A stretch of 47,064 nucleotides of DNA from Phycisphaerales bacterium JB064 (GTDB lineage Bacteria; Planctomycetota; Phycisphaerae; Phycisphaerales; UBA1924), in NCBI GenBank assembly GCA_044439825.1, contig JBITAB010000092.1, positions 1 through 47,064 on the forward strand. The letters are read 5' to 3'. Below the pieces are notes generated by a model, which searched no databases, had not been told where the DNA came from, and saw only the letters and a list, made by a program, of their open reading frames with translations. Positions within the stretch are counted from its first letter, which is position 1; the number at the start of each line of letters is the position of its first letter. Positions 2,857 through 39,998 of the stretch are shown here, one piece after another. The position numbers were made by a program, and so were the translations under genes.

Positions 2857-3332
2857 GGGGTGGCTCCTGCGGCACTTGGGAACAGGTTGAAAAAACTCAG
2901 GAAGTCGAAGATGCTCAGCTTCCCGTCACGGTCAAAGTCGGCGGCCATGTCCTCGACGGCAAAGGCGTTCTGGAAGGCGAGGAAGTCGAACACGTCGGCA
3001 ACCCCGTCCACGTTGAAGTCGGCGGGCCCCGCCCACATCACGTCCTCGAACCGCCAGCGGATGTCGTTCGCGTGGTTCTCGGCGTAGAACTGGCGGAAGC
3101 TCAGGGTGACGTAGCACGTCGAGTCCACGAACAAGGGCGATCCCCGGTGGTGCGGCTGGTCATCAAAGAACCGCGTGCGACGCATCCATGAACCCTGCTG
3201 CGTCATGCGCTCGAAGGTCACAGCCTCCACGATCGTCGGCAGGCACTCGCTGGTGGTGCTGAGCGTGCGCGGCATCGGCGCGGCTTCGATCACGAGCGTG
3301 CCCTGGTAGTTGGTGGCGATGGCGTCAAGCAT
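2853..3332 (-). CDS. protein with two C-terminal dockerin/EF-hand-like Ca-binding repeats
   Basis: This is the inner part of track ORF 2853..3608. The ATG at 3332 overlaps the upstream stop (ATGCTTGA). The C-terminus ADFNVDGVADVFDFLAFQNAF...ADFDRDGKLSIFDFLSFFNLF contains two D-x-[DN]-x-DG loops, each followed by a DFL-x-F helix. Confidence 0.7.
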   Translation of the reverse strand: MLDAIATNYQGTLVIEAAPMPRTLSTTSECLPTIVEAVTFERMTQQGSWMRRTRFFDDQPHHRGSPLFVDSTCYVTLSFRQFYAENHANDIRWRFEDVMWAGPADFNVDGVADVFDFLAFQNAFAVEDMAADFDRDGKLSIFDFLSFFNLFPSAAGATP

Positions 3333-3876
3333 CGGATGGCTCCGGAGCAAGTGGGACCACCGAGCCAGAGGCGCGGGCGTAGAACAGCGGGCCAGCGTCG
3401 ATGTGCTCCAGAGAGTGGCACGCCGCCAGGACGGCGTACGCCTCTCGGCCGCGGACCATGACGGCAATAGGTTCATCAGGGCCAGCAATGCCGATGTGGA
3501 CATAGGCGTCCTCGATCGATCCCTTGGCCCGCATCGCGTCAACGAGCCGTTGTAATGCCGACCAATTGACCGTAACCCACTCGCGGTGTTGGTGTAGAAC
3601 CTCGCCAACCTTTCTCATCACGTCGGGGAACCGGCCATCTGCGGGCTTGCCGTCTTGGTCAATGAAATACGGCTCGGCTTCTGGCTCCCCGGCGGGCTCG
3701 GCCGATGCGACGATGTAGTGCGGGTTGCACGCAAACACCCACGTCCGGCCTGGGCTTAGGCACGGAACGGCCATTGCCAAGGTGTATGTCCACTTGTCAT
3801 CCAGCGCAGCGCACGGAGCGGACAGGATGTTGCTCTGAATGTCATCAGCCGTCAGTCGTTGGGTTTGCTCAAGCAT
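3325..3876 (-). CDS. hypothetical protein
   Basis: Track ORF 3325..3879. The ATG at 3876 is preceded by a near-perfect SD (GGAGGTGATTG). Confidence 0.7.
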   Translation of the reverse strand: MLEQTQRLTADDIQSNILSAPCAALDDKWTYTLAMAVPCLSPGRTWVFACNPHYIVASAEPAGEPEAEPYFIDQDGKPADGRFPDVMRKVGEVLHQHREWVTVNWSALQRLVDAMRAKGSIEDAYVHIGIAGPDEPIAVMVRGREAYAVLAACHSLEHIDAGPLFYARASGSVVPLAPEPSDA

Positions 3877-4348
3877 CAATCACCTCCGCCAGCACAAGCA
3901 TGGTCTCGAACATCTTCGACGGGCCGAGCAGCACGCGAGCGCCCGGGCCATGCGGCCTCCCGTCGCACCACGCCTTGCCCTGAGCGCCGATCGTGATCTG
4001 CGAGTCGTCCTGGTACAGCACAGCCTGCAGCGAGTCTTCGATTTGCCGCGCGTACTTGAGGGCATCGGGTCGCTGCACCGGCTGTGCGTCCTGGCACTTC
4101 GGACGTAGCACGCCCTTGGCGTTGTAGTGGCCCTTCGGCCGTGCGCGATAGAACATGCACACCAGCGCGAGGGGAACGCCCTTCTCGATCGGGCCGCCGC
4201 TCTTGGCCTTGAGCGCCGCGTCCTGGACGGCCGAGCGCCATGCTTTGCCCTTGATCCCGCTCGAATCCACGAGGATGCCGTTGCCGACGTGCCGCTTGCT
4301 CCCCGCCGTCGCGGGCTCGCCTGGAATCCACAGGTCGATGATGGTCAT
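3869..4348 (-). CDS. rusA: RusA-family Holliday junction resolvase
   Basis: The protein is 159 aa. The layout IPGEPATAGSKRH...KAWRSAV...FYRARPKGH...RPDALKYARQIEDSLQAVLYQDDSQI matches RusA endonucleases, which have a basic N-terminal half and an acidic D..K...D...DD.Q cluster. It has an ATGA overlap with the upstream gene. Confidence 0.8.
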   Translation of the reverse strand: MTIIDLWIPGEPATAGSKRHVGNGILVDSSGIKGKAWRSAVQDAALKAKSGGPIEKGVPLALVCMFYRARPKGHYNAKGVLRPKCQDAQPVQRPDALKYARQIEDSLQAVLYQDDSQITIGAQGKAWCDGRPHGPGARVLLGPSKMFETMLVLAEVIDA

Positions 4349-4755
4349 TGGTCATTTCCTGCGTACTCCGGGTGCTGGTTGGCCATGTGCTGCGCCAGAT
4401 TCTGGAACGTGCGATTGCAGCACGGACACACGCCGTGCGCGACGCGGTTCTTGAGCCTCGTCTTGGCGGCCTTCTCGGCGCGTCGTTGGTTTTCCGTGTG
4501 CGATAGCTCGGCCTTGGTCTGGTCGTGCTGCGCCCGCTCTCGCTGCAACTGTTCTTCGGCCAGTCGCGCTCGCTTCTGGTCCTGCGTCTCTCCCGTCCAG
4601 CACGTGCTACTGCCACACGCCGGGCAGTACACCGAACCCTTCTTGTCGCGGACAGCCCGGCGATACATGCCGTCGTTGATTCCAAAGTTCGTGCCACAGG
4701 TGTAGCAAGCCACGACATGGAACGTTTGCTCAACAGTCCTGGTGAACGTGCTCAT
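4345..4755 (-). CDS. zinc-ribbon / coiled-coil protein
   Basis: Track ORF 4345..4761, with ATG at 4755. Three Cys pairs are present (CYTC, CPAC, CPCC...H....H), separated by a charged coiled-coil segment. Confidence 0.7.
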   Translation of the reverse strand: MSTFTRTVEQTFHVVACYTCGTNFGINDGMYRRAVRDKKGSVYCPACGSSTCWTGETQDQKRARLAEEQLQRERAQHDQTKAELSHTENQRRAEKAAKTRLKNRVAHGVCPCCNRTFQNLAQHMANQHPEYAGNDQ

Positions 4756-5578: not shown

Positions 5579-5589
5579 TCCTCAAGTTG
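5579..5589 (-). promoter_or_regulatory. CAACTTGAGGA box, copy 1
   Basis: Exact 11-mer on the minus strand, 5 nt upstream of the ATG at 5573. Confidence 0.9.
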
Positions 5590-5629
5590 GTATTTTCAGA
5601 TTTGCCCGCAAACGGCCCTAGAAGCCCGC

Positions 5630-6439
5630 CTAAGGCGAATCGCGCCTCAGGGGGCCCCGGTGGTCGGCTTGGCCGTTGCGGCGGGCGTACAGAGCCTCAG
5701 CCTCGGCCTTGGCGCTGCCGTTGGTCAGGTCTGTGTCGAATCCCCCGCCCTTGAGCCAGTTCTCCATGTGCGGGACGAACCGGCGCTCGGTGTCGGCCTT
5801 GGACGCCTGGAACGCTCGGATGCGATCCAACAGCCACGCGTGGGCGTCGCTGGGGGCGTCGGCCTTCTTGCGGATCTCGCGGATGGCCAGCTTGTACTCG
5901 TTGAACGCCTTGGCCTTCTCGCCCCGGTCCTTGCCGTAGGCGGACCATGCGGCCTCGAACTCTGGCGAGTAGTCGAACTTCGATCGCTTCGACACACGGT
6001 CCGGCCCCCCTTGGGGGGTAGGGGGGTCTTTCTTCTTCTCTTCTCTTCTCTTCTCTTCTCTAGCTAACGCTGATGTAACGATGGCATCGTTACGGTGCTT
6101 GGACACTCGTTTTGCTGTAAGTGCCCGCGTTTTAGAGGTTTGTGTGTTGTGACGGTCGAAGTTGACAAAGCGATACCCACCGCTTTCGGCTGGCGACAGC
6201 CACCGAACCTCGTCGTGCAGCATCGCGTCCGCCAATCCTGATACGCCCGCGTGACGATCAAGTGCGCTTTTTGTAACGATGCGAGCGTTACCATCTATGG
6301 TCTGCTGATCTGCCCAAATCCACAGGCGCACGAGACCGCCAATGACTTCGTTGACCGTGATGCCAAGCTGTTCGGCCATGTGGTCAATCTCTTCCTTGTC
6401 CGGGGTCGCGTGTTCGATCTTGATCCAGTCGCCAGCCAT
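5630..6439 (-). CDS. replication initiator / replisome-organizer-like protein
   Basis: This is the inner part of track ORF 5630..6589. The ATG at 6439 is preceded by GGAGAAGC. The N-terminus MAGDWIKIEHATPDKEEIDHMAEQLGI...LVRLWIWADQ resembles the N-terminal DNA-binding domain of phage replication organizers. A charged linker is followed by a C-terminal YSPEFEAAWSAYGK... domain. Iteron-like repeats lie inside the gene. Confidence 0.65.
   Translation of the reverse strand: MAGDWIKIEHATPDKEEIDHMAEQLGITVNEVIGGLVRLWIWADQQTIDGNARIVTKSALDRHAGVSGLADAMLHDEVRWLSPAESGGYRFVNFDRHNTQTSKTRALTAKRVSKHRNDAIVTSALAREEKRREEKKKDPPTPQGGPDRVSKRSKFDYSPEFEAAWSAYGKDRGEKAKAFNEYKLAIREIRKKADAPSDAHAWLLDRIRAFQASKADTERRFVPHMENWLKGGGFDTDLTNGSAKAEAEALYARRNGQADHRGPLRRDSP
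6005..6291. other. candidate origin of replication inside the initiator gene
   Basis: The cluster contains a C6-TT-G6 palindrome (6005-6018), (TTCTC)5 (6036-6060), and the inverted repeat GTAACGAT-GGC-ATCGTTAC (6075-6093). It also contains a T-rich stretch at about 6109-6150, GTGACGGT (6149-6156), GTGACGAT (6251-6258) and the inverted repeat GTAACG-N7-CGTTAC (6273-6291). Confidence 0.4.
6036..6060. repeat. perfect pentanucleotide tandem repeat (TTCTC)x5
   Basis: Read directly from the sequence. It encodes REEKRREEK in the initiator linker. Confidence 0.95.
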
Positions 6440-6460
6440 CGCTTCTCCGTGCTCGTGCTG

Positions 6461-6495
6461 AAAAACCCGCCCGTGGGCTTTCGCCTCACGGGGGG
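6461..6495 (-). terminator. intrinsic terminator after recT
   Basis: The minus strand reads CCCGTGAGGC-GAAA-GCCCACGGG followed by CGGGTTTTTC, between the recT stop (6510) and the initiator start (6439). Confidence 0.55.
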
Positions 6496-6509
6496 CTGAG
6501 GAGGAGAGA

Positions 6510-7358
6510 TCAGTTGCTCTCGTACAGGCCCTCTCGGACCTGGGCCTCCACCTCGTCGGTGATGGCCTCGGAATCAATGTCGTCGCCAATCATGGTGCCA
6601 CTGGTCATGGTCGCGACAGGTTCCTCTGCCGGCTCGTCGCCGCCCAGAGCCCCCTCCAGCGCGTCCATGCGCGTCTGCGGCTTCTGTGCCATCTTGGAGG
6701 GGTCGAACGCTGGCTCGATGTCTCGAGCCTCCTCGGTCATGTCCAGCCCGCCCAGAGCGTCGGGGAACGCGTCACGCATGGCCCACGATCGGGCCCGCAT
6801 CTGCATCATCCGCTCGGGGTAGTCCTGCCAGGGGCCGGTCTTGCCCGTGAGCTTGGCGACGGTCGCCTGGGCCCATGTGAAGGTCTGGTGGATCTCCTGT
6901 GGCTCGCCGTCCTTGCGCTTGCGGACGATGACGCAGTGGGCCGTCCAGGTGCTCTTGCGCGCCTCGCCGTCCAGCCACTCCCTCACGCTGACGCATTCGG
7001 GGTGGCGGCGGACCAGGGCGAGCGCCGTGTCGCCCCAGATGGTCGGGCGGTTGTTGATGATCGCCAGCCCGTTGAGCGCCTGCAGGGGGTTGAGCCCCAG
7101 CGGAATGCCCGTCATGATGGCGATGCTGGCCTGCTGCATGGCAAGCTGCGGGTCGAAGTCGCGCCCGATCTTGCCATAGCTGCTTGGTAGCATCTGGGCC
7201 TTGGTGAAGGCGTTGGCCAGCCTCAGGCAGTCGCCGTAGTTCTGGATGGCCACGCCCGCGTCGCGGCTGATACTGATTTCGGACACGGCGCTGCTTTGCA
7301 CCCACTCGTCGAACGTCGGGGTCTTGGTCGCCAGTTGCTTGTTCTGTTCGTCGGTCAT
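6510..7358 (-). CDS. recT: RecT-family single-strand annealing protein
   Basis: The protein is 282 aa. Motifs GLNPLQALNGLAIINNRPTIWGD, TGPWQDYPERMMQMRARSWAMRDAFPD are typical of RecT. The ATG lies 9 nt downstream of a CAACTTGAGGA box. Confidence 0.85.
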   Translation of the reverse strand: MTDEQNKQLATKTPTFDEWVQSSAVSEISISRDAGVAIQNYGDCLRLANAFTKAQMLPSSYGKIGRDFDPQLAMQQASIAIMTGIPLGLNPLQALNGLAIINNRPTIWGDTALALVRRHPECVSVREWLDGEARKSTWTAHCVIVRKRKDGEPQEIHQTFTWAQATVAKLTGKTGPWQDYPERMMQMRARSWAMRDAFPDALGGLDMTEEARDIEPAFDPSKMAQKPQTRMDALEGALGGDEPAEEPVATMTSGTMIGDDIDSEAITDEVEAQVREGLYESN

Positions 7359-7367
7359 GTGCGGTCC

Positions 7368-7378
7368 TCCTCAAGTTG
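7368..7378 (-). promoter_or_regulatory. CAACTTGAGGA box, copy 2
   Basis: Exact 11-mer, 9 nt upstream of the recT ATG (7358) and a few nt after the ssb stop. Confidence 0.9.
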
Positions 7379-7383
7379 GTTGG

Positions 7384-7782
7384 TCAGAATGGGGGCGCGT
7401 CGTCGTCCGGTGGCGGCCCGTCGCCGCCCCCGTAGTGGGCCTGCGCGGCCGCCTGCTGAGTCTTGGGGTTCTCGATGAAGTGGAAGTTGTTGAGCGCGAC
7501 CTTGAGCTTGCTTCGCTTCTGGCCGTCCTGCTCCCACTGGTCGAGCTTCAAGCGGCCTTCGAGCAGGATCTTGTCGCCCTTCTTGAAGTACCGGGCGATG
7601 GTCTCGGCGACCTTGCCCCACGCCTCGCACTCGACCCACACCACGGACTTCTTGGTCGTGCCGTCCTTGGCCCTGTAGCGGTCCTCGACGGCCACGCTGA
7701 GCGCGGCCACAGCGTTGTTGTTGCTGGTGTACCTGAGTTCCACGTCGCGGCCGAGTCGGCCCATGAGATTCACGCTGTTCAT
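7384..7782 (-). CDS. ssb: single-stranded DNA-binding protein
   Basis: These are the last 132 codons of track ORF 7384..8430. The OB-fold N-terminus reads MNSVNLMGRLGRDVELRYT... and the acidic C-terminal tip is DDDAPPF. The ATG at 7782 overlaps the exonuclease stop (ATGA). Confidence 0.9.
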   Translation of the reverse strand: MNSVNLMGRLGRDVELRYTSNNNAVAALSVAVEDRYRAKDGTTKKSVVWVECEAWGKVAETIARYFKKGDKILLEGRLKLDQWEQDGQKRSKLKVALNNFHFIENPKTQQAAAQAHYGGGDGPPPDDDAPPF

Positions 7783-8711
7783 GATGCCTCCGCCCCGATG
7801 AATGGGTGGTCTGTGTCCTGCGCCGGCTGCGCCTTGACCCACCGCGGCACGATGCTCTCGCGGCGCGTGTAGGTGATCTCCTTCTCGGGAACGCGGTCCA
7901 GGCGGATCGCCTTGGGCCAGCCTGGCGCGTAGATCATGCTGGCGTCGCCGGCCTTGTCGTAAATGGCCGCTTCCACGTTCTCGATCTGCTCCTCGATGGC
8001 CTTGCGCTTGGTCTTGAGCTTGTCCAGTTGCTCGAACAACTCGATGCCCACCTGCACGGCTTTGCCTGGCTCGCGGTAGCGCAGGAACGAATGGGCCTTG
8101 CTGACCTCGCCCTCGGGCTCGACGCCCTCGATGACGTGCTTGGTCCACCACGCTTCCAGTTGGCGCACGAGCTTGTCCACCATGCCCGGCTTGTACTCGA
8201 TCTCGTACAGCCGAAACTCCTTGCGATCCATGACGATCAACTCGCACGCGACCCAAGCCCTGCGCCATCCCTTGACGGCCAGTTGGTGCAGCACCTGGGC
8301 GAGCACGTGCACGGGCACGCCCTCGGCCCCGTCGCTCTCGCCGCCCCACTCCTGGGCGAAGTTGGTGCTCTTGCATTCGAGGATGCCGCGCTCGCCATCG
8401 GGCAGCAGCACAACGCGGTCCAGGTTGCACGCCAGGATGCCGTTCTCGTGGACGCTCATGCCGTCCTCGTCCTCGACCACCTCACAGCCGATTCGCTCGG
8501 CGGCCAGCTTGGCCAGGACGGGCTCGACCAGTTCGCCGTAGCGCAGGATGCTCGCGTCGGTGTCGGGCTCGTAGTCGCGTTCGAGCCGCCCGGTTTTCTC
8601 GAGCCAGAGTTCCTTGGGCGTTCGCCACGGGCTGAGCCCGAGCGCCACGGGGGCGTCGGATGAGCCGAGGTACTTCTTGCGTGCCTCGCGCTGTTCTGGG
8701 GTGATGGCCAT
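7779..8711 (-). CDS. YqaJ-like / lambda-Exo-type recombination exonuclease
   Basis: The protein is 310 aa. The N-terminus reads YLGSSDAPVALGLSPWRTPKELW, and GILECKST is the E-x-K of a PD-(D/E)XK site. It is adjacent to ssb and recT. Confidence 0.85.
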   Translation of the reverse strand: MAITPEQREARKKYLGSSDAPVALGLSPWRTPKELWLEKTGRLERDYEPDTDASILRYGELVEPVLAKLAAERIGCEVVEDEDGMSVHENGILACNLDRVVLLPDGERGILECKSTNFAQEWGGESDGAEGVPVHVLAQVLHQLAVKGWRRAWVACELIVMDRKEFRLYEIEYKPGMVDKLVRQLEAWWTKHVIEGVEPEGEVSKAHSFLRYREPGKAVQVGIELFEQLDKLKTKRKAIEEQIENVEAAIYDKAGDASMIYAPGWPKAIRLDRVPEKEITYTRRESIVPRWVKAQPAQDTDHPFIGAEAS

Positions 8712-8881
8712 TAGGCACCACCTTCCCGAATCAGGTTGAACGCACTGCGCCAGAAGGCGAGCGGAGGCTTGGCATCCTCAATGGCAAGGCCAGCCCAAAC
8801 AGCGAGCGTTGACCAGACTCCATTGCCAGCCCTTCCGCCGGGCCAGCATCCATCCATGCCCCATCGTCTCAGAACGTGCAT
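8711..8881 (-). CDS. hypothetical small protein (56 aa)
   Basis: This is the inner part of track ORF 8711..8935. The ATG at 8881 lies 7 nt downstream of a CAACTTGAGGA box, and the stop overlaps the exonuclease ATG (TAATG-type). Confidence 0.5.
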   Translation of the reverse strand: MHVLRRWGMDGCWPGGRAGNGVWSTLAVWAGLAIEDAKPPLAFWRSAFNLIREGGA

Positions 8882-9036
8882 TACAGCCTCCTCAAGTTGA
8901 AGCGACGCCATGCACACGCCACAAGGCGCACGCACAGCGTCACGAGTGAAATCTGGTTCTCGGGCTTTGGCCAGCCGTCCGCGCTAGCGACCTCGAAGTC
9001 GCCTTGACCCTTCCTCACCAGCGGATCGTCCAGCAT
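8881..9036 (-). CDS. possible small protein (51 aa) overlapping the integrase 3' end
   Basis: The ATG at 9036 is preceded by GAGGAGGCTGGTGGCC. Over 9001-9060, third-position GC is 16/20 in this frame and 10/20 in the integrase frame (counted by hand). Confidence 0.35.
   Translation of the reverse strand: MLDDPLVRKGQGDFEVASADGWPKPENQISLVTLCVRLVACAWRRFNLRRL
8889..8899 (-). promoter_or_regulatory. CAACTTGAGGA box, copy 3
   Basis: Exact 11-mer, 7 nt upstream of the ATG at 8881. Confidence 0.9.
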
Positions 9037-10450
9037 GGCCACCAGCCTCCTCGATGAGGGGGTGGGCGGCCTCCACACGGGCCCCGGCCTCCGATAGCCA
9101 CTGGCGGGTCAAGCCTGCCTGGGCCATCGTCCTGGGGGCGCTGCGATCACGGATCAGGGAACGGGGGTTCAGGCGTCGGCGAAGCTGTGACCACGGGAGA
9201 TCGAATCCCGGTGGGGTCATTCGCCTACTCCTGTTGCCACGGCGCTCCTCAACACCGTACTCGCGTGTAGGAGCCGCCGATGGCTCCCCCTCATAACGCT
9301 TGCTACCGAGTGTACCATCGGATACTCCGGGTTGCAAGATCAAATCAGAGGTTGCGAGCAACTTTTTCAGCCGCTCCACCTCAGATTCGGGCAGGAGTGT
9401 GGGTGTTACTGCGTAGGCGAGGGCTTCCAGGGCCTCGTCGCTGGGCCTGACGTAGCTGGCGCTGGTGATGGCGCTGCTGGTGTGGCGGGCCATCGTCGAG
9501 CTCGCCGTGGGCTTCCCGTCCTCCTGGCGCGTGATCTGGCTGAGGATGTCCGAGTCGCTGCGCATGGCCACGTAGGTGATGAAGCCCTTGCGCCAGCGGT
9601 GCCAGAGCCCGGGCTTGCGCTCGATCCCTGCGGCCTCCATGTCCTTGATGAGCGTGTTGTGGTCAGTGGCGGGGAACACGGGTTTATTGGCCCCCAGCGG
9701 CGCATGGCGGTTGTTGGCTCGCTCGATGCGCTCGCGCCCCAGCACCAAGGCCAGTTCCCACGGGATCGGCATGCGGTCCCCGCGGCGGCTCTTGTCCTTG
9801 CGGATCTTGAGCCAGCCCTGGCGCAGGTCCACGTCCGCCCAGACGACGCCATGAGCCTCGGCCCGCCTGAGCCCCATCGTGCCCATAGCGAGGTACAGGG
9901 CCGATCTGCGGCCATGCCGGCGGCTCTGGTGGGCCTCCTCCTCCTGGCCGAGCGCCTGGGCCACCAGCGCCCGCATCTCCTCGAGCGTGAAGGGGTGCGC
10001 CCCGTCCCCGCGATCGCCGGCCCTGACCGGGGCGCTGCGCACGGTCATGAGCGGATCGTGGGTGAGCTCGCCAGAGGCCACCAGATAGCCCGTGAAGGCC
10101 CGCATCATGCTCAGGTGGTTCTTGATCGTCTGCGGGTGTGCACCCTCGCCCCCATTGCCCGCCTCGGCCTGATGGTTGATCCAGGCGAGCATGCTCTTGG
10201 CGTTGATGTCGCTGACGCGCTCCCAGCCGCACCAGTGGGCGATACTCAGGACCGCCACCTCGCACTTGTTGGCGTACTGCTGGCTGCGGCCCAGCCGACC
10301 CAGAAAATCAGCCTTGAACTCTGGCACCACTGCCGTGATGCGTCTCCTCTGCTCTTGCGCCAGCACAGCGTCTCCTTTCGACCCACCACAGGTACAAGGA
10401 TAACGCTTATTCGCTGTGAAACCAGCGCGCAGAACGTCCCAGAACGCCAT
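8984..10450 (-). CDS. int: tyrosine recombinase / phage integrase with long C-terminal extension
   Basis: Track ORF 8984..10507. The ATG at 10450 is preceded by GCGGAGCGAAGTC. Catalytic signature: GLRRAEA (Arg), HRWRKGF (H-x-x-R), ARHTSSAITSASY (His...Tyr). About 140 residues of low-complexity sequence follow the catalytic Tyr. Confidence 0.85.
   Translation of the reverse strand: MAFWDVLRAGFTANKRYPCTCGGSKGDAVLAQEQRRRITAVVPEFKADFLGRLGRSQQYANKCEVAVLSIAHWCGWERVSDINAKSMLAWINHQAEAGNGGEGAHPQTIKNHLSMMRAFTGYLVASGELTHDPLMTVRSAPVRAGDRGDGAHPFTLEEMRALVAQALGQEEEAHQSRRHGRRSALYLAMGTMGLRRAEAHGVVWADVDLRQGWLKIRKDKSRRGDRMPIPWELALVLGRERIERANNRHAPLGANKPVFPATDHNTLIKDMEAAGIERKPGLWHRWRKGFITYVAMRSDSDILSQITRQEDGKPTASSTMARHTSSAITSASYVRPSDEALEALAYAVTPTLLPESEVERLKKLLATSDLILQPGVSDGTLGSKRYEGEPSAAPTREYGVEERRGNRSRRMTPPGFDLPWSQLRRRLNPRSLIRDRSAPRTMAQAGLTRQWLSEAGARVEAAHPLIEEAGGHAGRSAGEEGSRRLRGR
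9291..9328 (+). promoter_or_regulatory. third copy of the TAACGCTTGC...TACTC box (antisense, inside int)
   Basis: The plus strand reads tCATAACGCTTGCTA-N15/16-GATACTCC. The 14-mer GCAAGCGTTATGAG is identical to the copy at 13592-13605. The -10-like part is weak. Confidence 0.3.
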
Positions 10451-10500
10451 GACTTCGCTCCGCACTGGGCGTAGACTCACCGTGAGGCGGTCGTACGCCG

Positions 10501-10511
10501 TCCTCAAGTTG
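10501..10511 (-). promoter_or_regulatory. CAACTTGAGGA box, copy 4
   Basis: Exact 11-mer, but 50 nt upstream of the int ATG and immediately after a hairpin. Confidence 0.9.
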
Positions 10512-10512
10512 G

Positions 10513-10551
10513 CCCCTGTCCGGGTTCTCCACGAGCCCGGCGGGGGTTTTT
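10513..10551 (+). terminator. terminator-like hairpin with T-run on the plus strand
   Basis: CCCCTGTCCGGG-loop-CCCGGCGGGG is followed by TTTTT on the plus strand. On the minus strand the A-run comes before the stem. Confidence 0.4.
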
Positions 10552-10567
10552 CGCCATATCTTAATAA

Positions 10568-10789
10568 TTAGGCGCAGAAAGGTTCCTCTGGCAAGCAGAG
10601 GATGCGCAAATGGCCACTGGTGTACACCAGGACGTGCGTGCCGTCGCCGAGGACGTAGCGGCCGATGCCCTTGGCCTTCTCACGTCGTGAGGCCCGGCCG
10701 TAGTCTCGGCAGAAGTGCCGATCGATCAGGGCGTCGGCGCTCGTCTCGTTACGGTCGAGGGCGATCTGGGCTTCTGGGGTGGTGGTCAT
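10568..10789 (-). CDS. hypothetical protein
   Basis: This is the inner part of track ORF 10568..10807. The ATG at 10789 overlaps the upstream stop (ATGA). Confidence 0.65.
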   Translation of the reverse strand: MTTTPEAQIALDRNETSADALIDRHFCRDYGRASRREKAKGIGRYVLGDGTHVLVYTSGHLRILCLPEEPFCA

Positions 10790-10974
10790 CGTGCAAGCGG
10801 CCACCACTTGCGGCGGCGCTCGATCTTGGTGAGCCGCGACTCAAGCTCGGCGATGCGGCAGCCTTGCTGTTGCACCAGATTCAGCAGCAGCGATGTGGCT
10901 TCAATGCCTTTGCCGGTGAGTTCCATCTGCGATCGAATGGCTTCGATGGTCTGTAGCAGTGGGTGTTGATTCAT
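10786..10974 (-). CDS. hypothetical coiled-coil protein
   Basis: Track ORF 10786..10983, with ATG at 10974. Confidence 0.6.
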   Translation of the reverse strand: MNQHPLLQTIEAIRSQMELTGKGIEATSLLLNLVQQQGCRIAELESRLTKIERRRKWWPLAR

Positions 10975-11011
10975 AAGCCGCACCCGCCCGCTTCCACGGG
11001 CAGGGCGGTGG

Positions 11012-11347
11012 TCATTGCGATCTGGTTTCGTCGATCAAGTCATCAACAGACATCCCAAGCAAGCCTGCAAGCTCTTTCTCTACTCCAACAAGCTCAAGAT
11101 ATACCCTCTCTTCGTCGGCCTCAGGAACGCCGTAGTAGAACATGCGATAGATCTCGAATCGGCGACGACCTAACGCCACGGCCCTTTCACACTCATCACG
11201 CCTTCGGCTCGTCAGGTGCCAAAGGCCGCCCTTTTCGTAGACGTGCATCCTTTTGCCAAACCGCTTGCTCGCCAACCTCGCAGCTCTCTTGGCCTTGCGA
11301 CGAGTCTCGTAGCGAACCTTGTGGCTGTCGCTATGCTCCTCAGGCAT
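11012..11347 (-). CDS. hypothetical basic protein
   Basis: Track ORF 11012..11380. The ATG at 11347 has GAGGGAG 5 nt upstream, whereas the ATG at 11380 has no SD. Confidence 0.6.
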   Translation of the reverse strand: MPEEHSDSHKVRYETRRKAKRAARLASKRFGKRMHVYEKGGLWHLTSRRRDECERAVALGRRRFEIYRMFYYGVPEADEERVYLELVGVEKELAGLLGMSVDDLIDETRSQ

Positions 11348-11392
11348 TCCATCTCCCTCTCGCCGCGCCCATCTCGGCATCGGGCAAGCCGG

Positions 11393-11578
11393 CTACCTGT
11401 TCGCGTAGGCGTATGCCGCCATGACGACGAAAACAGGCCAGATCATCGTGCACTGGAGCCAAATTCGAGCCTCGCGGCCAACGGTGAACGGCCCAATGCC
11501 ATGACGTTTCGCGGCGGCACTGGCCCAAAGATAGATGACCGATCCAATCGCCAGATACCCCAAAATCGCATAGATCAT
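11393..11578 (-). CDS. small membrane protein (2 TM)
   Basis: Track ORF with SD GAAGGAGACACACG-ATG. Hydrophobic segments are IYAILGYLAIGSVIYLWA and TMIWPVFVVMAAYAYA. Confidence 0.65.
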   Translation of the reverse strand: MIYAILGYLAIGSVIYLWASAAAKRHGIGPFTVGREARIWLQCTMIWPVFVVMAAYAYANR

Positions 11579-11638
11579 CGTGTGTCTCCTTCGTGAAAAC
11601 CAGCCCAGGGCCTTTCGGCCCAGGACCGGACTTGAGGC

Positions 11639-11848
11639 TCACTGCTCACGGTATGCGGCGTCGATCTCGTAGCAGTCGGCAGCGCCACCGGCCGCACTGG
11701 CCATCTTCGCGGCCATCTGCTGCCCAAGGTGCTTGGCGCTCTCGGCGTCGTAGGCGTCCACTGCGAGCTTGAACGTCACCTCGACCGTGTAGTCGTGCTC
11801 GTAGGCGTCTGGGGGTTGGGTGCGTGGGTTCTGGGTGAATTGGCTCAC
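11639..11848 (-). CDS. hypothetical protein
   Basis: Track ORF. The GTG start overlaps the upstream stop (GTGA). Confidence 0.6.
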   Translation of the reverse strand: MSQFTQNPRTQPPDAYEHDYTVEVTFKLAVDAYDAESAKHLGQQMAAKMASAAGGAADCYEIDAAYREQ

Positions 11849-12171
11849 TTCCCCACCCCCAGTTCGCGTGCGCGGGCGAGGGCGGCACGGACTCGAGCCA
11901 AATCCGCATCATTCGGATAGCATCCGTTGTCGTCGATGCACACCAGCTCATCCAACGCCTCCACCAACTCCCCGCACACCTCACGCAGCTTGTCACTTTC
12001 CGGCCAACCGACAAGGTTGCTCAGGTGTGCGGCCTCCGCCTCGTACTTGTCGCGTGTGTGCTGGTCAAGGTCGAGCGTGGACACGCACGCACGCAGCGTG
12101 ATGATCCTGGCTTTTGCCCAGCCGATAGAGTCCGCCGGTCGCTCTGGCGTGTGCTTCGCTTGCTCTGTCAT
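11845..12171 (-). CDS. hypothetical protein
   Basis: This is the inner part of track ORF 11845..12219. The ATG at 12171 lies 7 nt downstream of a CAACTTGAGGA box. Confidence 0.7.
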   Translation of the reverse strand: MTEQAKHTPERPADSIGWAKARIITLRACVSTLDLDQHTRDKYEAEAAHLSNLVGWPESDKLREVCGELVEALDELVCIDDNGCYPNDADLARVRAALARARELGVGK

Positions 12172-12178
12172 GTGAATC

Positions 12179-12189
12179 TCCTCAAGTTG
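12179..12189 (-). promoter_or_regulatory. CAACTTGAGGA box, copy 5
   Basis: Exact 11-mer, 7 nt upstream of the ATG at 12171. It is preceded by a 9-bp hairpin and a T-rich run. Confidence 0.9.
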
Positions 12190-12252
12190 AACGAACCAAA
12201 CCGAGGGCCCAGCCGTCAAGCCGAGCCCCGGTATCCCTGGGGGGAATTTGAA

Positions 12253-12612
12253 TCACTGGCGGCCAGAGGCAACAGCCGCGGCCCTGTTCTCGCGCAAGAC
12301 CTCCAGGCCCTCGATGCCGCCATGCTCCAGCGCCTTGGCCACGGCCTCGGTCGCCTCGTCACAAGCGAGCTCGACCAGCGGCAGGGCTTGCTCGAGACCA
12401 GCACAGAACGAGCGCGCCATCTGCTCGGTCGTGAATCGGGCCTCGACGCCCCCGCAGTCGCCAGGGCCGGCCACGTCGCCGATGTCACGATGCACGCTGC
12501 CATCCCGAAACTCGTAGAGGGTCGCGGTCCCGTTGGGGGCCACGTCGAACCCGTAGGCCGTGCGCCCGCCCTCGCTGCGCTTCCGTGCCGCCATAGCGTC
12601 GAATTGATCCAT
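12253..12612 (-). CDS. hypothetical protein
   Basis: This is the inner part of track ORF 12253..12792. The ATG at 12612 lies 8 nt downstream of a CAACTTGAGGA box. Confidence 0.7.
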   Translation of the reverse strand: MDQFDAMAARKRSEGGRTAYGFDVAPNGTATLYEFRDGSVHRDIGDVAGPGDCGGVEARFTTEQMARSFCAGLEQALPLVELACDEATEAVAKALEHGGIEGLEVLRENRAAAVASGRQ

Positions 12613-12620
12613 GATGTTGC

Positions 12621-12631
12621 TCCTCAAGTTG
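12621..12631 (-). promoter_or_regulatory. CAACTTGAGGA box, copy 6
   Basis: Exact 11-mer, 8 nt upstream of the ATG at 12612. Confidence 0.9.
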
Positions 12632-12674
12632 GGGTGAAGCCACGCCCGCGCCGGTAGGCAGGGGCGTAGGGGGT

Positions 12675-13160
12675 TCAGGCGGCGGCCTTGGAGAGCGTCA
12701 GGCTGGCCACGATGTCTACGAGCTTGTCCCACGCATCTGGGGTGCAAGCAATCGCGTTCACGTTGTCCATCGGTGGCGGCAGGTGTGCACACGCCGCAGT
12801 CAAGACGGCACGCTCGGCCTCGGTCTGCAACGTCTCGGCCTCAAGGGCTGGGCAGTTGCCGGGGCGCGACACAGTGAAACCGGCCTCCTTCAGCCTCTGG
12901 TCGATGTCGGCGTAGATGTCCGCACACAGCGCGTCATCCTCGCACAGGTAGAGGCGGCGGATGTCGGTGATGGGCTCACCAGGGCGGCCGTTGCGCGTCG
13001 CGGTCGGCTTCCATAGGGCCAGGGCTTCGGCGTGGATGGGCTCGACGAGCTCGCGCTGAAGCTGGGCGAAAGCCTTGGCCTCGATGAACGCGCGAACGCA
13101 GCGGCGCACCACAGGGTCGCGTTTGATCGCGTCCAGGTGCTTGGTGGTGATGGCTTGCAT
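12675..13160 (-). CDS. hypothetical protein
   Basis: Track ORF. The ATG lies 6 nt downstream of a CAACTTGAGGA box. Confidence 0.7.
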   Translation of the reverse strand: MQAITTKHLDAIKRDPVVRRCVRAFIEAKAFAQLQRELVEPIHAEALALWKPTATRNGRPGEPITDIRRLYLCEDDALCADIYADIDQRLKEAGFTVSRPGNCPALEAETLQTEAERAVLTAACAHLPPPMDNVNAIACTPDAWDKLVDIVASLTLSKAAA

Positions 13161-13166
13161 GATGTC

Positions 13167-13177
13167 TCCTCAAGTTG
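13167..13177 (-). promoter_or_regulatory. CAACTTGAGGA box, copy 7
   Basis: Exact 11-mer, 6 nt upstream of the ATG at 13160. The hairpin CCGGC-N6-GCCGG (13179-13194) abuts it. Confidence 0.9.
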
Positions 13178-13233
13178 GCCGGCACAATCGCCGGAAAGCA
13201 CCCCGAACCCGGTAGGGCTCGAGGGGCGGGGGG

Positions 13234-13512
13234 TTAGGCAGTCTGAAGCTTGCCCTCAGCCTTGGCCGTGTTCATCGCGCGCCGCCCGATCTCGCAAAAC
13301 TTGCGGCCCGTCTCGGTGATCTCGAGCCGAGGCCCAGCCAAACGCCGCGACAGCTTCTTTGACACCAGGGCAGACGCGACGGCCTGAAACTCGTGAAGCT
13401 CGATCCCCTCGCCAAGAAGCACCGCAAACAGGTGCCCTTCGGGCTGGGGGCCAAGCTCGGCCAAAGTCTCAAGAACCGCGAAAGCGACGGCGGCAGGGTT
13501 GGACATCGTCAT
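13234..13512 (-). CDS. winged-helix-like small protein, first gene of the leftward operon
   Basis: Track ORF. The pattern LFAVLLGEGIELHEFQAVASALVSKKLSRRLAGPRLEITETGRKF resembles a wHTH (helix-helix-wing). The function is inferred only. Confidence 0.65.
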   Translation of the reverse strand: MTMSNPAAVAFAVLETLAELGPQPEGHLFAVLLGEGIELHEFQAVASALVSKKLSRRLAGPRLEITETGRKFCEIGRRAMNTAKAEGKLQTA

Positions 13513-13521
13513 CGTTCATAC

Positions 13522-13532
13522 TCCTCAAGTTG
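13522..13532 (-). promoter_or_regulatory. CAACTTGAGGA box, copy 8
   Basis: Exact 11-mer, 9 nt upstream of the ATG at 13512 and about 30 nt downstream of the predicted leftward promoter. Confidence 0.9.
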
Positions 13533-13567
13533 CAGCGCACCAATCCAATCGGCACGCTGATACAAGG

Positions 13568-13595
13568 AGTATATCAAATCGACACCATAGTGCAA
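13568..13595 (-). promoter_or_regulatory. leftward early promoter candidate (TTGCAC-N16-TATACT)
   Basis: On the minus strand the -35 is TTGCAC (13595-13590), followed by a 16-nt spacer and the -10 TATACT (13573-13568). It lies in an AT-richer patch and points into the minus-strand operon. The -35 is embedded in the conserved box CATAACGCTTGC. Confidence 0.5.
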
Positions 13596-13666
13596 GCGTT
13601 ATGAGCTATATTCCTTCAAATAGGGCAAATCCCAATAAAGGATTGGCTCATACTACCCACAACTCA

Positions 13667-15204: not shown

Positions 15205-15226
15205 ACAGAATACTATGGCGTAACGC

Positions 15227-15255
15227 TTGCCCTGTGTTGTTTGTAGCGGTACTCT
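15227..15255 (+). promoter_or_regulatory. rightward promoter candidate (TTGCCC-N17-TACTCT)
   Basis: The -35 is at 15227-15232 and the -10 at 15250-15255. The -35 is embedded in CGTAACGCTTGC, the same box as at 13592-13603. An AAGGAGAA SD and the ATG at 15294 lie downstream. Confidence 0.5.
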
Positions 15256-24572: not shown

Positions 24573-24772
24573 TGCAGTTCTTTATCGCGGCGTCATTCTT
24601 GTGCTGGTCTATATGGTTTTTCGTTGGGACGCTGCGCATCTTGACGGGCAAGTACGAAAGGCGTATTGACGAAGTGTACGCGCTTGCCAAACACTGCTTT
24701 TGCGCCCACGCCGCAGGCCTGTTACTAGCTCTGGTGACGCTTGCAGTGCAACAACTTGAGGCGTTGACATGA
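24569..24772 (+). CDS. small 2-TM membrane protein
   Basis: This is the inner part of track ORF 24443..24772. The ATG at 24569 overlaps the GT2 stop (ATGA). Hydrophobic segments are FFIAASFLCWSIWFFVGTL and AAGLLLALVTLAV. Confidence 0.6.
   Translation: MMQFFIAASFLCWSIWFFVGTLRILTGKYERRIDEVYALAKHCFCAHAAGLLLALVTLAVQQLEALT
24752..24761 (+). promoter_or_regulatory. near copy of the CAACTTGAGGA box (CAACTTGAGGc) on the plus strand
   Basis: 10 of 11 positions match. It lies 7 nt upstream of the ATG at 24769. Confidence 0.6.
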
Positions 24773-38688: not shown

Positions 38689-39998
38689 TGCCGTGGGCAA
38701 ACTTCCTTGGTGGCTTCCAGACCGCACTCGATGCCGGTGCGCGCCAGCAGCAGTTGTTCCAGCAGCAGCAGGCGATGCAGATCCAGCAGGAGCAGTTCCA
38801 GCAGCAGATGATGCAGCGGCAGGCCGAGGAGGCGTTCCGCCAGCAGATGGCCCAGCAGGGATTCGGGCTGGATCAGGCCCGATTCGGGCTCCAGCAGGAC
38901 CAGTTCGCCTACGGACAGCAGCGCGATCAGGTCGGCGATCAGTTCCGCAACCGCGCCTTCGACTACCAGCAGCAGCGCGACACCGTGGGCGATCAGCAGT
39001 TCGATCAGCGCATGGCCTATCAGGCCGGCCGGGACTACATCGGAGATCAGCAGGTGGCGGCGCGGTTCGGGCTCGCGCAGGATCAGGCCAACTTCAACAT
39101 GGGCATGGCTCGCAACCAGGACGAGCGCGCTGCGGCGCTGCACCCCGAGCAGCTTCGCGCCATCCAGATCGGCAACCAGATCGACATGATGAAGGCCCAG
39201 CAGATGGGCATGCCCGCCAGCGGGTTCCCAGAGGACGCCAACGTGCACCGGCTGGCGATGGAGGCCAGCAGGCAGGCGGCGCAGGCGGCGGCCGACGCCA
39301 TCATGAAGAAGTACGACGGCGTGATGCTCGACCCGCGCAAGGGCCAGAACTCGGTCTTTGACGTGATGAGCCCGCAGGATCAGGCGGCGTACACACAAGC
39401 GATCGGCGATGCCGAGCGATTCGCGGCCGGCATCCAGCGGCTCGGCGGACTCTCGCCCTACATGCAGCAGCCCCAGCAGCAGGTCGTGCCCGGCATGGAG
39501 ACGGTCGGCACTGGCTCGCAGGGCGGCATCATGGACTTCTTCGCGCAGGAGGCCGGGCAGGCACCGCAGCCGTCGCCCGGACCCGGCGTGGTCTACGAGC
39601 GCACGCCACATGCCAACAGCTACGGCCCGCCAGTTGTGCCGCAGGAGCGACCGCGCGAGCCCGAGATGGGCGGCGTGAGCGCCCCGCCCGCCGAGGCCCC
39701 GGTCAACGACACGCCCAGCCAGAGCTTGTTCCAGCGCCTCACGTCGATCAGGACATCGCAGGACATCCTGGCAGCACCCGACGCAGGCCCGTCGATCATG
39801 GAGCAGTACGAAGACCTCCTGCGCCAGATCATGAGCAACAACGACTGGACGATGGAGCAGCGGTTGAAGCTGGCCAGCGGCGTCAATGAGCGCGTCAGCA
39901 CGCTCGTGGCCAACGCTCTGCCGTCCGCTTCGGACGCGCTCGGGCCCATGATGGAGATGACCAACCGGCGTCGCCAGATCGTGAGCGAGTACCAGTAA
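38688..39998 (+). CDS. Q-rich internal virion protein candidate
   Basis: Track ORF. It has repeated Q..RD.VGDQ units, and its start overlaps the upstream stop. Confidence 0.65.
   Translation: MPWANFLGGFQTALDAGARQQQLFQQQQAMQIQQEQFQQQMMQRQAEEAFRQQMAQQGFGLDQARFGLQQDQFAYGQQRDQVGDQFRNRAFDYQQQRDTVGDQQFDQRMAYQAGRDYIGDQQVAARFGLAQDQANFNMGMARNQDERAAALHPEQLRAIQIGNQIDMMKAQQMGMPASGFPEDANVHRLAMEASRQAAQAAADAIMKKYDGVMLDPRKGQNSVFDVMSPQDQAAYTQAIGDAERFAAGIQRLGGLSPYMQQPQQQVVPGMETVGTGSQGGIMDFFAQEAGQAPQPSPGPGVVYERTPHANSYGPPVVPQERPREPEMGGVSAPPAEAPVNDTPSQSLFQRLTSIRTSQDILAAPDAGPSIMEQYEDLLRQIMSNNDWTMEQRLKLASGVNERVSTLVANALPSASDALGPMMEMTNRRRQIVSEYQ

Follow-up and report, generated by a model that had tools for sequence, protein, structure and literature searches.

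Why does a phage set one and the same 11-nt word, only part of which is a Shine-Dalgarno sequence (SD), in front of a series of unrelated early genes? The question is raised by contig JBITAB010000092.1 of Phycisphaerales bacterium JB064 (47,064 nt; this whole stretch is called the window below), in which the word CAACTTGAGGA, here termed the box, recurs along a leftward early operon. The window makes up an entire 47-kb contig. The assembly to which it belongs is a metagenome-assembled genome of 2.8 Mb and 78% completeness, obtained from a marine sample. The contig is the genome of an uncultured phage, with the leftward early operon followed by a gene-poor switch region, two tRNAs and a rightward late arm, and to judge from its sequence the phage is temperate and encodes an integrase. 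The answer that we find plausible, and hold only tentatively, is that the box may be a start-associated tag with which a phage antisense RNA of 65-70 nt would pair, so that translation of the early genes would be controlled jointly.

Results

The box combines an SD core with an invariant extension

An exact search of the window found eight mismatch-free copies of CAACTTGAGGA, all on the minus strand and all within positions 5579-13532, in agreement with the initial annotation. The mean count in dinucleotide-preserving shuffles was 0.03, and none of 100 shuffles reached eight. What the copies share is limited to the 11-mer, and their flanks differ. Seven copies had been placed 5-9 nt upstream of a start codon, and the measured distances between box end and ATG run from 5 to 9 nt (Table 1). 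When four box-bearing phages were pooled (the window phage and the relatives described below), ATG was used at all 18 box-associated starts, compared with an overall ATG usage of ~65% (P ~4e-4). The box is an SD core (AGGA/GAGGAG) fused to an invariant 6-nt 5' extension, CAACUU. A mismatch-tolerant search of the window returned a single meaningful extra copy, CAACTTGAGGC, on the plus strand; this is the near copy that had been reported earlier, and it lies 6 nt before its ATG.

Apart from this one degenerate late-arm copy, the boxes are confined to the early leftward operon, which codes for four small proteins annotated without function, a tyrosine integrase, a RecE-like exonuclease, a protein that binds single-stranded DNA (SSB), a RecT-like protein, a replication initiator and RusA. 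The rightward late arm holds the terminase and virion genes, whose SDs are ordinary and varied, as had been described. Most early-operon genes that follow an intergenic gap are preceded by a box, and none of the genes joined by ATGA/GTGA overlaps carries one, again as annotated. The further claim that the box marks the first gene of each translational cassette did not survive: the replication initiator (ATG 6439, whose product aligns with the phrog_2509 profile from position 1 on) comes after a gap of 70 nt, and its SD is a plain GGAG without a box. A gap-preceded gene without a box means that the box does not mark the first gene of every cassette, and the association is a tendency and not a law. 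A likely sigma-70-type promoter stands at the head of the operon (Table 1), with TTGGGT/TTGGTA-N17-TATTAT at the same position in the relatives. Box 1 starts ~35 nt downstream of its -10 element, and no box overlaps this promoter.

The box is not the ribosome-binding site of the host

The initial annotation had held that the box is more than an SD, and had named a host-wide extended SD as the finding that would speak against a specific role. This check was run. The remaining 2.76 Mb of the assembly contain no copy of CAACTTGAGGA; counts per genome in 300 members of the family were 0-4, with the copies scattered and not commoner than a reversed control word. Host genes do use SDs, with GGAG in 24% of the windows from -18 to -4 versus 4% in a control window; these SDs are varied, and the 6-mers that precede GAGGA in the host are all different. 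Because the box is absent from the host assembly and rare in the 300 family genomes, it is not the host SD consensus.

The 16S 3' end of the genus is the canonical GGAUCACCUCCUUUCU, with which AGGA(G) can pair and CAACUU cannot, and in this respect the view that the box exceeds an SD was borne out. No conserved internal complement of the box was found in 16S rRNA. AAGUUG occurs there once, at position ~180 and in some members of the genus only, and GUGUUGC is absent from the 16S genes of the genus, so the internal 16S complementarity that characterizes enhancers of the T7 epsilon type is lacking.

Related phages carry the same box or one with a word of its own

A large protein collection was the source of three relatives: L022, a contig of 3 kb that encodes a RecE 92% identical to that of the window; a 52-kb TARA Oceans scaffold (L026/L185/L186) whose TerL is 54-55% identical; and L029, an 11-kb contig. 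Other searches were negative. There was no megablast match among GenBank phages, where the best TerL match was 25% identical, and no match was obtained in single-protein scans of IMG/VR with RecE and TerL or in integrase-profile scans of IMG/VR, JGI metagenomes and GTDB genomes. A TerL search of the 300 family genomes found no prophage relative. Run X4 yielded only 151-nt fragments of a relative, covering no box, and this phage is absent from runs X2 and X3; no RNA run contained the stretch.

L022 carries the identical CAACTTGAGGA twice, directly before the RecE ATG and upstream of the integrase, the latter copy sitting in DNA that can no longer be aligned to the window. The TARA phage and L029 carry a different word, GCAACACAGGAG, in five and seven copies, respectively; every copy is on the gene strand, and the distance to an ATG is 6-8 nt in nearly all of them. 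Within a phage the copies do not differ (8/8 identical in the window, 5/5 and 7/7). Both words keep CAAC and AGGAG; the intervening bases differ and the register is shifted by one. As the relatives keep boxes, the two more distant ones with another word, the system is conserved and the word is lineage-specific. The genes that follow a box vary between phages, for example RecE-type and ERF-type recombinases, and distant TerL relatives (30-38% identical) do not have the box architecture.

Two further observations concern these sequences. Positions 1-19 of L022 are not of phage origin but derive from the Nextera transposase adapter AGATGTGTATAAGAGACAG. The distant TerL relative L123 (IMGVR_UViG_3300007735_000691) has a start-associated element of its own at 3172-4600 (+), ggatgggactgctTCAAGGAGAacac, in five copies, each 1-3 nt before an ATG or GTG.

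An orphan copy looks like an antisense RNA gene

In every one of the four phages a single copy of the box, of that phage's own type, is an orphan, lying upstream of int and away from any start codon. For the window, the initial annotation had placed this copy 50 nt upstream of an integrase ATG. That it does not belong to a start codon stands, and the distance is doubtful: among the integrase N-termini compared (460, 460 and 463 aa) an SD followed by GTG/ATG is conserved, and from this comparison the window integrase most likely starts at GTG 10366, with 460 aa as in L022 and L026. With that start the orphan box would lie ~135 nt upstream of the gene, and not 50 nt upstream of ATG 10450.

An A-run and a hairpin stand before the orphan box on the gene strand. 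The opposite strand reads as anti-box, strong hairpin and T-rich tail, a layout that, on sequence, is the form of an intrinsic terminator for an opposite-strand transcript. The tails of the four orphans (TTTTTCGC, TTTTTGTC, GCTTTCTC and TCTTTTCC) contain 5, 6, 4 and 5 T per 8 nt, and the chance of at least four T in 8 nt is P = 0.036 per tail. The strong-hairpin sequences of the four orphans are 57-75% alike and all still pair. A second hairpin, on the 5' side of the anti-box and taking in the anti-SD bases, covaries between the lineages: two phages have GAGG..CCUC there, the remaining two CAGG..CCUG. This 5' hairpin is preceded in every phage, at a distance of 5-7 nt, by a TAnnnT hexamer (TAGACT in the window and TACACT, TACTGT and TATGTT in the relatives). 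With the start of the predicted RNA set 7 nt after this hexamer, the four phages give putative RNAs of 65-69 nt, in which the anti-SD is paired and a predicted unpaired probability above 0.9 is reached exactly by the bases complementary to the extension (AAGUU or UGUUGC). Within the window, plus-strand positions 10501-10511 are the exact complement of all CAACTTGAGGA boxes, SD included.

The orphan module folds more stably on the opposite strand than on the gene strand in all four phages (-41.9/-31.8, -49.5/-44.4, -43.5/-39.5 and -41.3/-34.1 kcal/mol), with 13 G-U pairs on the opposite strand versus 3 on the gene strand. A MAFFT alignment of the four antisense modules was not structure-consistent, and pairs were therefore counted by folding each sequence. 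This strand bias is the reverse of that in most (15/18) of the hairpin regions before boxes at real ribosome sites, where the gene strand is the more stable, a bias attributable to G-U pairs under selection acting on the mRNA.

In a blind screen of ~150 distantly related phage loci, the pattern sought was a word that recurs before start codons, with its complement placed ahead of a U-tailed hairpin; only this phage group and one weak chance match came up. Whole-RNA duplex folding was uninformative in GC-rich sequence, and seed-only duplexes discriminate weakly. Rfam returned two tRNAs and one non-significant match only, the latter to the antisense antitoxin RNA rdlD (10500-10552 (+), 16.5 bits, E 0.98, below threshold), on the strand that is predicted to be transcribed.

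Several candidate features of the region were tried and rejected. A small open reading frame (ORF) or non-canonical start after the orphan box was dismissed, as no start codon is common to the four phages. An apparently conserved 'KRYPC' peptide before the integrase is explained by a conserved DNA word, AAGCGTTATCCTTGT, read in different frames, and a resemblance of the box to a CsrA site fails on alignment.

The word TAACGCTT occurs in four copies, at 13594-13601 (-), 15221-15228 (+), 9294-9301 (+) and 10401-10408 (+). Three have the promoter-like form TAACGCTTGC-N18-20-(A)TACTC, one of them inside the integrase gene on its antisense strand and conserved in L022. The fourth lies within ACAAGGATAAYGCT, which is conserved ~85 nt before the anti-box in all four phages and which, on mRNA, can pair with the integrase SD.

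Hairpins and genes around the boxes

Hairpins stand upstream of six of the eight copies (Table 1), consistent with the earlier remark that several copies directly follow hairpins. A weaker one (5629-5650) is found ahead of box 8, and there is none ahead of the copy at 7368. The upstream hairpins are GC-strong and mutually unrelated in sequence. The sequence of the 8904-8942 hairpin is kept in L022, L185 and L029 although the surrounding genes are at 46-49% protein identity; this hairpin could belong to an attachment site or be a site of processing. A comparison with the host assembly returned no attB-like match.

The acidic 119-aa protein is always box-preceded across lineages. Its AlphaFold model (pLDDT 80) predicts three strands and a long helical hairpin and had no significant fold match in the PDB, and a scan for further relatives with this protein gave no match. 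At 8711-8881 (-) there is a 170-nt insert, absent from L022, with a Trp-rich 56-aa ORF of no clear codon bias. This ORF takes over box 6 as its ribosome site and ends in a TAATG that overlaps the RecE start.

At 2960-2992 lies a sequence of 29-33 nt that recurs on at least 20 further contigs of the assembly; it is also here that the source run's public contigs break, with depth rising abruptly from ~7 to ~18. The leftmost 3 kb of the contig might be a wrong join or a module carried by only part of the population.

Table 1 Boxes, predicted antisense RNA, hairpins and associated features of the window
Feature	Position	Strand	Remarks
Box 1	13522..13532	-	9 nt before ATG 13512; 92-aa protein, first gene downstream of the leftward promoter
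Box 2	13167..13177	-	6 nt before ATG 13160; 161-aa protein
Box 3	12621..12631	-	8 nt before ATG 12612; 119-aa protein
Box 4	12179..12189	-	7 nt before ATG 12171; 108-aa protein
Orphan box	10501..10511	-	no ATG/GTG/TTG 5-12 nt downstream; plus strand reads anti-box TCCTCAAGTTG
Box 6	8889..8899	-	7 nt before ATG 8881; 56-aa ORF coupled to RecE-like exonuclease 8711-7779
Box 7	7368..7378	-	9 nt before ATG 7358; RecT-like annealing protein; 5 nt past the SSB stop codon
Box 8	5579..5589	-	5 nt before ATG 5573; 271-aa protein with homologue in TARA phage
One-mismatch copy CAACTTGAGGC	24752..24762	+	6 nt before ATG 24769; gap-preceded late-arm gene
Predicted 68-nt antisense RNA	10484..10551	+	putative transcript, from sequence and fold
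5' hairpin of predicted RNA	10484-10505	+	would hold the anti-SD
Single-stranded AAGUU of predicted RNA	10506-10510	+	complement of the non-SD extension
Terminator-type hairpin of predicted RNA	10511-10546	+	by folding
U tail of predicted RNA	10547-10551	+	from sequence
-10-like TAGACT	10472..10477	+	6 nt before predicted RNA start
Leader hairpin, 12 bp	13533..13560	-	directly before box 1; -16.0 gene strand vs -8.5 kcal/mol opposite strand
Two mRNA hairpins (13195-13228 and 13178-13196)	13178..13228	-	before box 2
mRNA hairpin	12640..12668	-	before box 3
mRNA hairpin and U-rich tail	12200..12233	-	before box 4; -24.2 gene strand vs -15.8 kcal/mol opposite strand
17-bp mRNA hairpin	8904..8942	-	between integrase stop and box 6; -27.0 gene strand vs -18.9 kcal/mol opposite strand
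Likely leftward early promoter, sigma-70-type	13568..13595	-	TTGCAC-N16-TATACT, just upstream of box 1
Tyrosine integrase	8984..10366	-	460 aa if the start is GTG 10366
Acidic 119-aa protein	12253-12612	-	box-preceded; sole small early protein common to three lineages

Discussion

Stated in its widest form, which we offer with somewhat greater reserve than the pairing itself, the early genes of this temperate phage might constitute an RNA-addressed regulon, in which a lineage-specific address is fused to each SD and one small antisense RNA reads them all. The tag would define the group of early leftward genes under joint post-transcriptional control. The small antisense RNA would be transcribed from the opposite strand across the orphan copy (plus strand, 10484-10551), with its anti-SD held in the 5' hairpin and AAGUU, the complement of the extension, exposed between the two hairpins. 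With the anti-SD masked in this way, the RNA should spare the ordinary SDs of the host. Pairing would begin at the extension, which would serve as a toehold, and then spread into the SD while displacing the 5' hairpin of the RNA itself; that the extension would be contacted first could account for its six invariant bases. Ribosome binding would be blocked, and decay possibly triggered, on all tagged mRNAs together. If one RNA reads all tags, the tag must stay identical across genes and change together with the orphan copy, so that address and RNA would coevolve and the switches of related phages would be orthogonal. The switch might act in early-gene shut-off or in silencing leaky early transcripts in the lysogen. 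We infer RNA production, pairing in trans, repression as its effect and this timing, the last two by likeness to the c4 RNA of phages P1 and P7 and to the RegA/RegB logic of phage T4, which are compared below.

The initial annotation had listed several roles for the box without choosing among them. Its regulator-binding role is the one favoured by the co-varying boxes and the antisense-like orphan; an RNA partner was not among its proposals. The novel points are the orphan copy, with its traits of an antisense RNA gene, and the lineage-specific co-variation of orphan and boxes.

A number of points weigh against pairing with an antisense RNA. The transcript is a prediction, its -35 region is poor in all four phages, and the putative promoter might need an activator. 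The single-stranded anti-box is predicted to be only 4-6 nt long, which makes for a short toehold. There are two box types among the four phages, so the co-variation rests on one change, and a single protein reading all sites would equally lead to co-variation of the orphan. By symmetry, either strand can form hairpins, and the asymmetry amounts to 4-10 kcal/mol per module in few sequences; it is present in three of the four phages when only 60 nt upstream of the orphan are considered. At the tagged sites, seed-duplex energies of -18 to -27 kcal/mol run into the tail of the background from GC-rich sequence (5th percentile -18.3), and the box is missing from at least one gap-preceded early gene.

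The tag could instead be read on the mRNA by a phage protein, either a translational repressor like RegA or an endoribonuclease like RegB, with the orphan as an additional integrase-regulating site and the opposite-strand terminator unrelated. An invariant box at the SD position of early genes only is the pattern expected of an RNA-binding protein, the co-variation of the orphan box fits equally well, and the 119-aa protein, which is found in all lineages and is itself box-preceded, would allow autoregulation. We nevertheless consider a protein reader unlikely, because it leaves unexplained why in 4/4 phages the orphan is flanked by two hairpins that favour the opposite strand, along with a U tail, and why the accessible part is the exact complement of the extension. 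Moreover, no member of such an RNA-binding or nuclease family was matched by Pfam or PHROGs among the early proteins, no RegA/RegB homologue was found with these databases among ~27 early-region proteins, most of which belong to no family, and the conserved 119-aa protein lacks a PDB fold match. The asymmetry of the box, its single orientation relative to transcription, its place in short intergenic spaces and its confinement to the phage, here a temperate contig with an integrase, would also suit a DNA site at which a phage repressor halts RNA polymerase during elongation within the early operon, as at the 13-bp asymmetric stoperators in Cluster A mycobacteriophages, and the orphan would simply be one site more. 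Such a site gives no reason for the 5-9 nt spacing to ATG in 18/18 cases or for AGGAG in both box types. No copy overlaps the leftward promoter, with box 1 ~35 nt downstream of its -10, the late arm is free of copies bar one degenerate, the G-U-based strand asymmetry points to selection at the RNA level, and no repressor gene was identified among the proteins scanned with Pfam and PHROGs; the DNA-site explanation is in our view improbable.

We give the same low weight to a box that acts in cis with no partner at all, as an optimised landing site for ribosomes in which CAACUU, unstructured and lower in GC, would be a standby site followed by a strong SD after stable hairpins, kept uniform by copying between sites. 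CAACUU is indeed AT-richer than its 65% GC surroundings and follows hairpins, ATG is always used, and CAAC followed by AGGAG is common to the two words. Variation would be tolerated in an enhancer, yet the copies of each phage are identical (8/8, 5/5 and 7/7) while their flanks differ; consistent 16S rRNA complementarity is lacking, host genes do not use the box, and an orphan conserved in four phages without a start codon is left unexplained. A function as a compact promoter or transcription start element of the phage, located behind terminator hairpins and giving each tagged gene a short-leader or leaderless message, with the orphan as integrase promoter, is very improbable. The hairpin-box-gene order does resemble terminator-promoter-gene units, and ATG is the exclusive start codon, but the range of 5-9 nt between box and ATG fits SD spacing and not a fixed start at the A of AUG, the canonical AGGAG in both box types is needless for a leaderless message, only 11 nt are conserved, and the proteins scanned include no phage RNA polymerase or sigma factor. 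Equally remote, as the main function, is a recombination or module-boundary sequence that promotes gene exchange, a role that is compatible with the other readings. Different genes follow the box in different phages, and the 170-nt indel with the 56-aa ORF (relative to L022) falls exactly between box plus spacer and the RecE ATG. The initial annotation had proposed checking whether mosaic breakpoints coincide with boxes; the RecE junction does, and the other breakpoint between window and L022, at window position 10276, lies away from boxes. Eleven bases are also short for homologous exchange, and SD spacing, ATG preference and the orphan module are left unexplained.

Comparison with known systems

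The stoperators of Cluster A mycobacteriophages work at the DNA level; they are spread over both arms of the genome, include an operator at the early promoter, and keep no set distance from start codons (PMC3203893). They share with the boxes an asymmetric sequence, dispersal along the direction of transcription, a preference for short intergenic spaces and a temperate phage as carrier. Unlike them, the sites described here are tied to the SD position and to one arm, and the early promoter is not overlapped.

In phage T4, RegB cuts GGAG in early intergenic regions, and RegB/RegA shut off many early genes post-transcriptionally (PMC3014915). Here too many early genes are concerned and the motif is at or in the SD. 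RegA and RegB are proteins with loose motifs, whereas the box is exact and longer and is accompanied by an antisense-looking orphan.

Among phage antisense regulators, the CI RNA of satellite phage P4 is comparable to the RNA that we predict. The c4 antisense RNA from the immI region of P1/P7 is a small RNA that pairs with short complementary stretches of the early transcript of its own phage, a ribosome-binding site among them, and blocks translation; the pairing sequences of c4-type RNAs differ between related phages and change with their targets, which leads to heteroimmunity (PMC12197685). The predicted RNA resembles c4 in its short exact complementarity to repeated sites of early transcripts, ribosome-binding site included. 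The pairing sequences likewise co-vary, as each orphan matches the boxes of its own phage (CAACTTGAGGA in the window and L022, GCAACACAGGAG in L185 and L029), in two types only. The differences lie in number and origin: c4 has two targets, both within a single operon, and arises by processing of same-strand RNA upstream of them, whereas here there would be at least seven target sites on separate genes and the predicted RNA would come from the opposite strand with a terminator of its own. If true, a multi-target small-RNA regulon internal to a phage would join the few known phage antisense controls, and would amount to a natural, re-programmable multi-gene translational switch.

The closest likeness in anatomy is to the start-associated sequence (SAS), a 13-bp word of Cluster K mycobacteriophages that is located 3-9 bp before starts (PMC3203893, Pope et al. 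2011). It has an SD core and non-pairing conserved positions, shows an ATG bias, is restricted to non-structural genes and has no copies in the host genome (PMC3203893). The SAS has been catalogued in hundreds of mycobacteriophages since 2011 without a tested mechanism, and its function was still described as ill-defined in 2024 (PMC11373665) and 2025 (PMC12699233).

Like the SAS, the box is a short, asymmetric and invariant word composed of an SD core and positions unable to pair with 16S rRNA. Where the SAS stands 3-9 nt before starts with a strong ATG preference, seven of the eight boxes stand 5-9 nt before an ATG. Both occur in a single orientation, before unrelated gene families among non-structural or early genes only, in phages whose hosts have no copies, and both have a rare copy away from a gene start, which in Anaya is a single reverse-oriented SAS in a gene-free gap. 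The two elements differ in word (CAACTTGAGGA compared with GGGATAGGAGCCC, the latter with up to 2 mismatches), in number (8 copies compared with 11-19) and in carrier, a phage from a marine metagenome-assembled genome as opposed to unrelated Mycobacterium phages. Since word, phage and host all differ, the box is not the Cluster K SAS by descent. The upstream elements are also unlike: unrelated GC hairpins that form best as mRNA here, and in the SAS often a conserved 17-bp inverted-repeat ESAS, now read as a promoter. Finally, the orphan with its opposite-strand terminator suggests an RNA partner for the box, and none has been proposed for the SAS.

The reverse SAS of Anaya is located at 59870-59882 (39871-39883 (-) of L187), in the 385-nt gene-free gap between gp96 and gp97. 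It lies ~150 nt past a strong intrinsic terminator, and a rightward transcript there would carry an anti-SAS; this copy could be a lead that antisense logic applies there too. If an antisense RNA does read the box, it would offer the first mechanism for start-associated sequences, unexplained since 2011, and anti-tag RNAs would be worth seeking in other box-bearing phages such as Anaya. The element described here has the anatomy of an SAS in an unrelated group of marine phages, and it comes with a concrete and testable candidate partner, the predicted 68-nt RNA.

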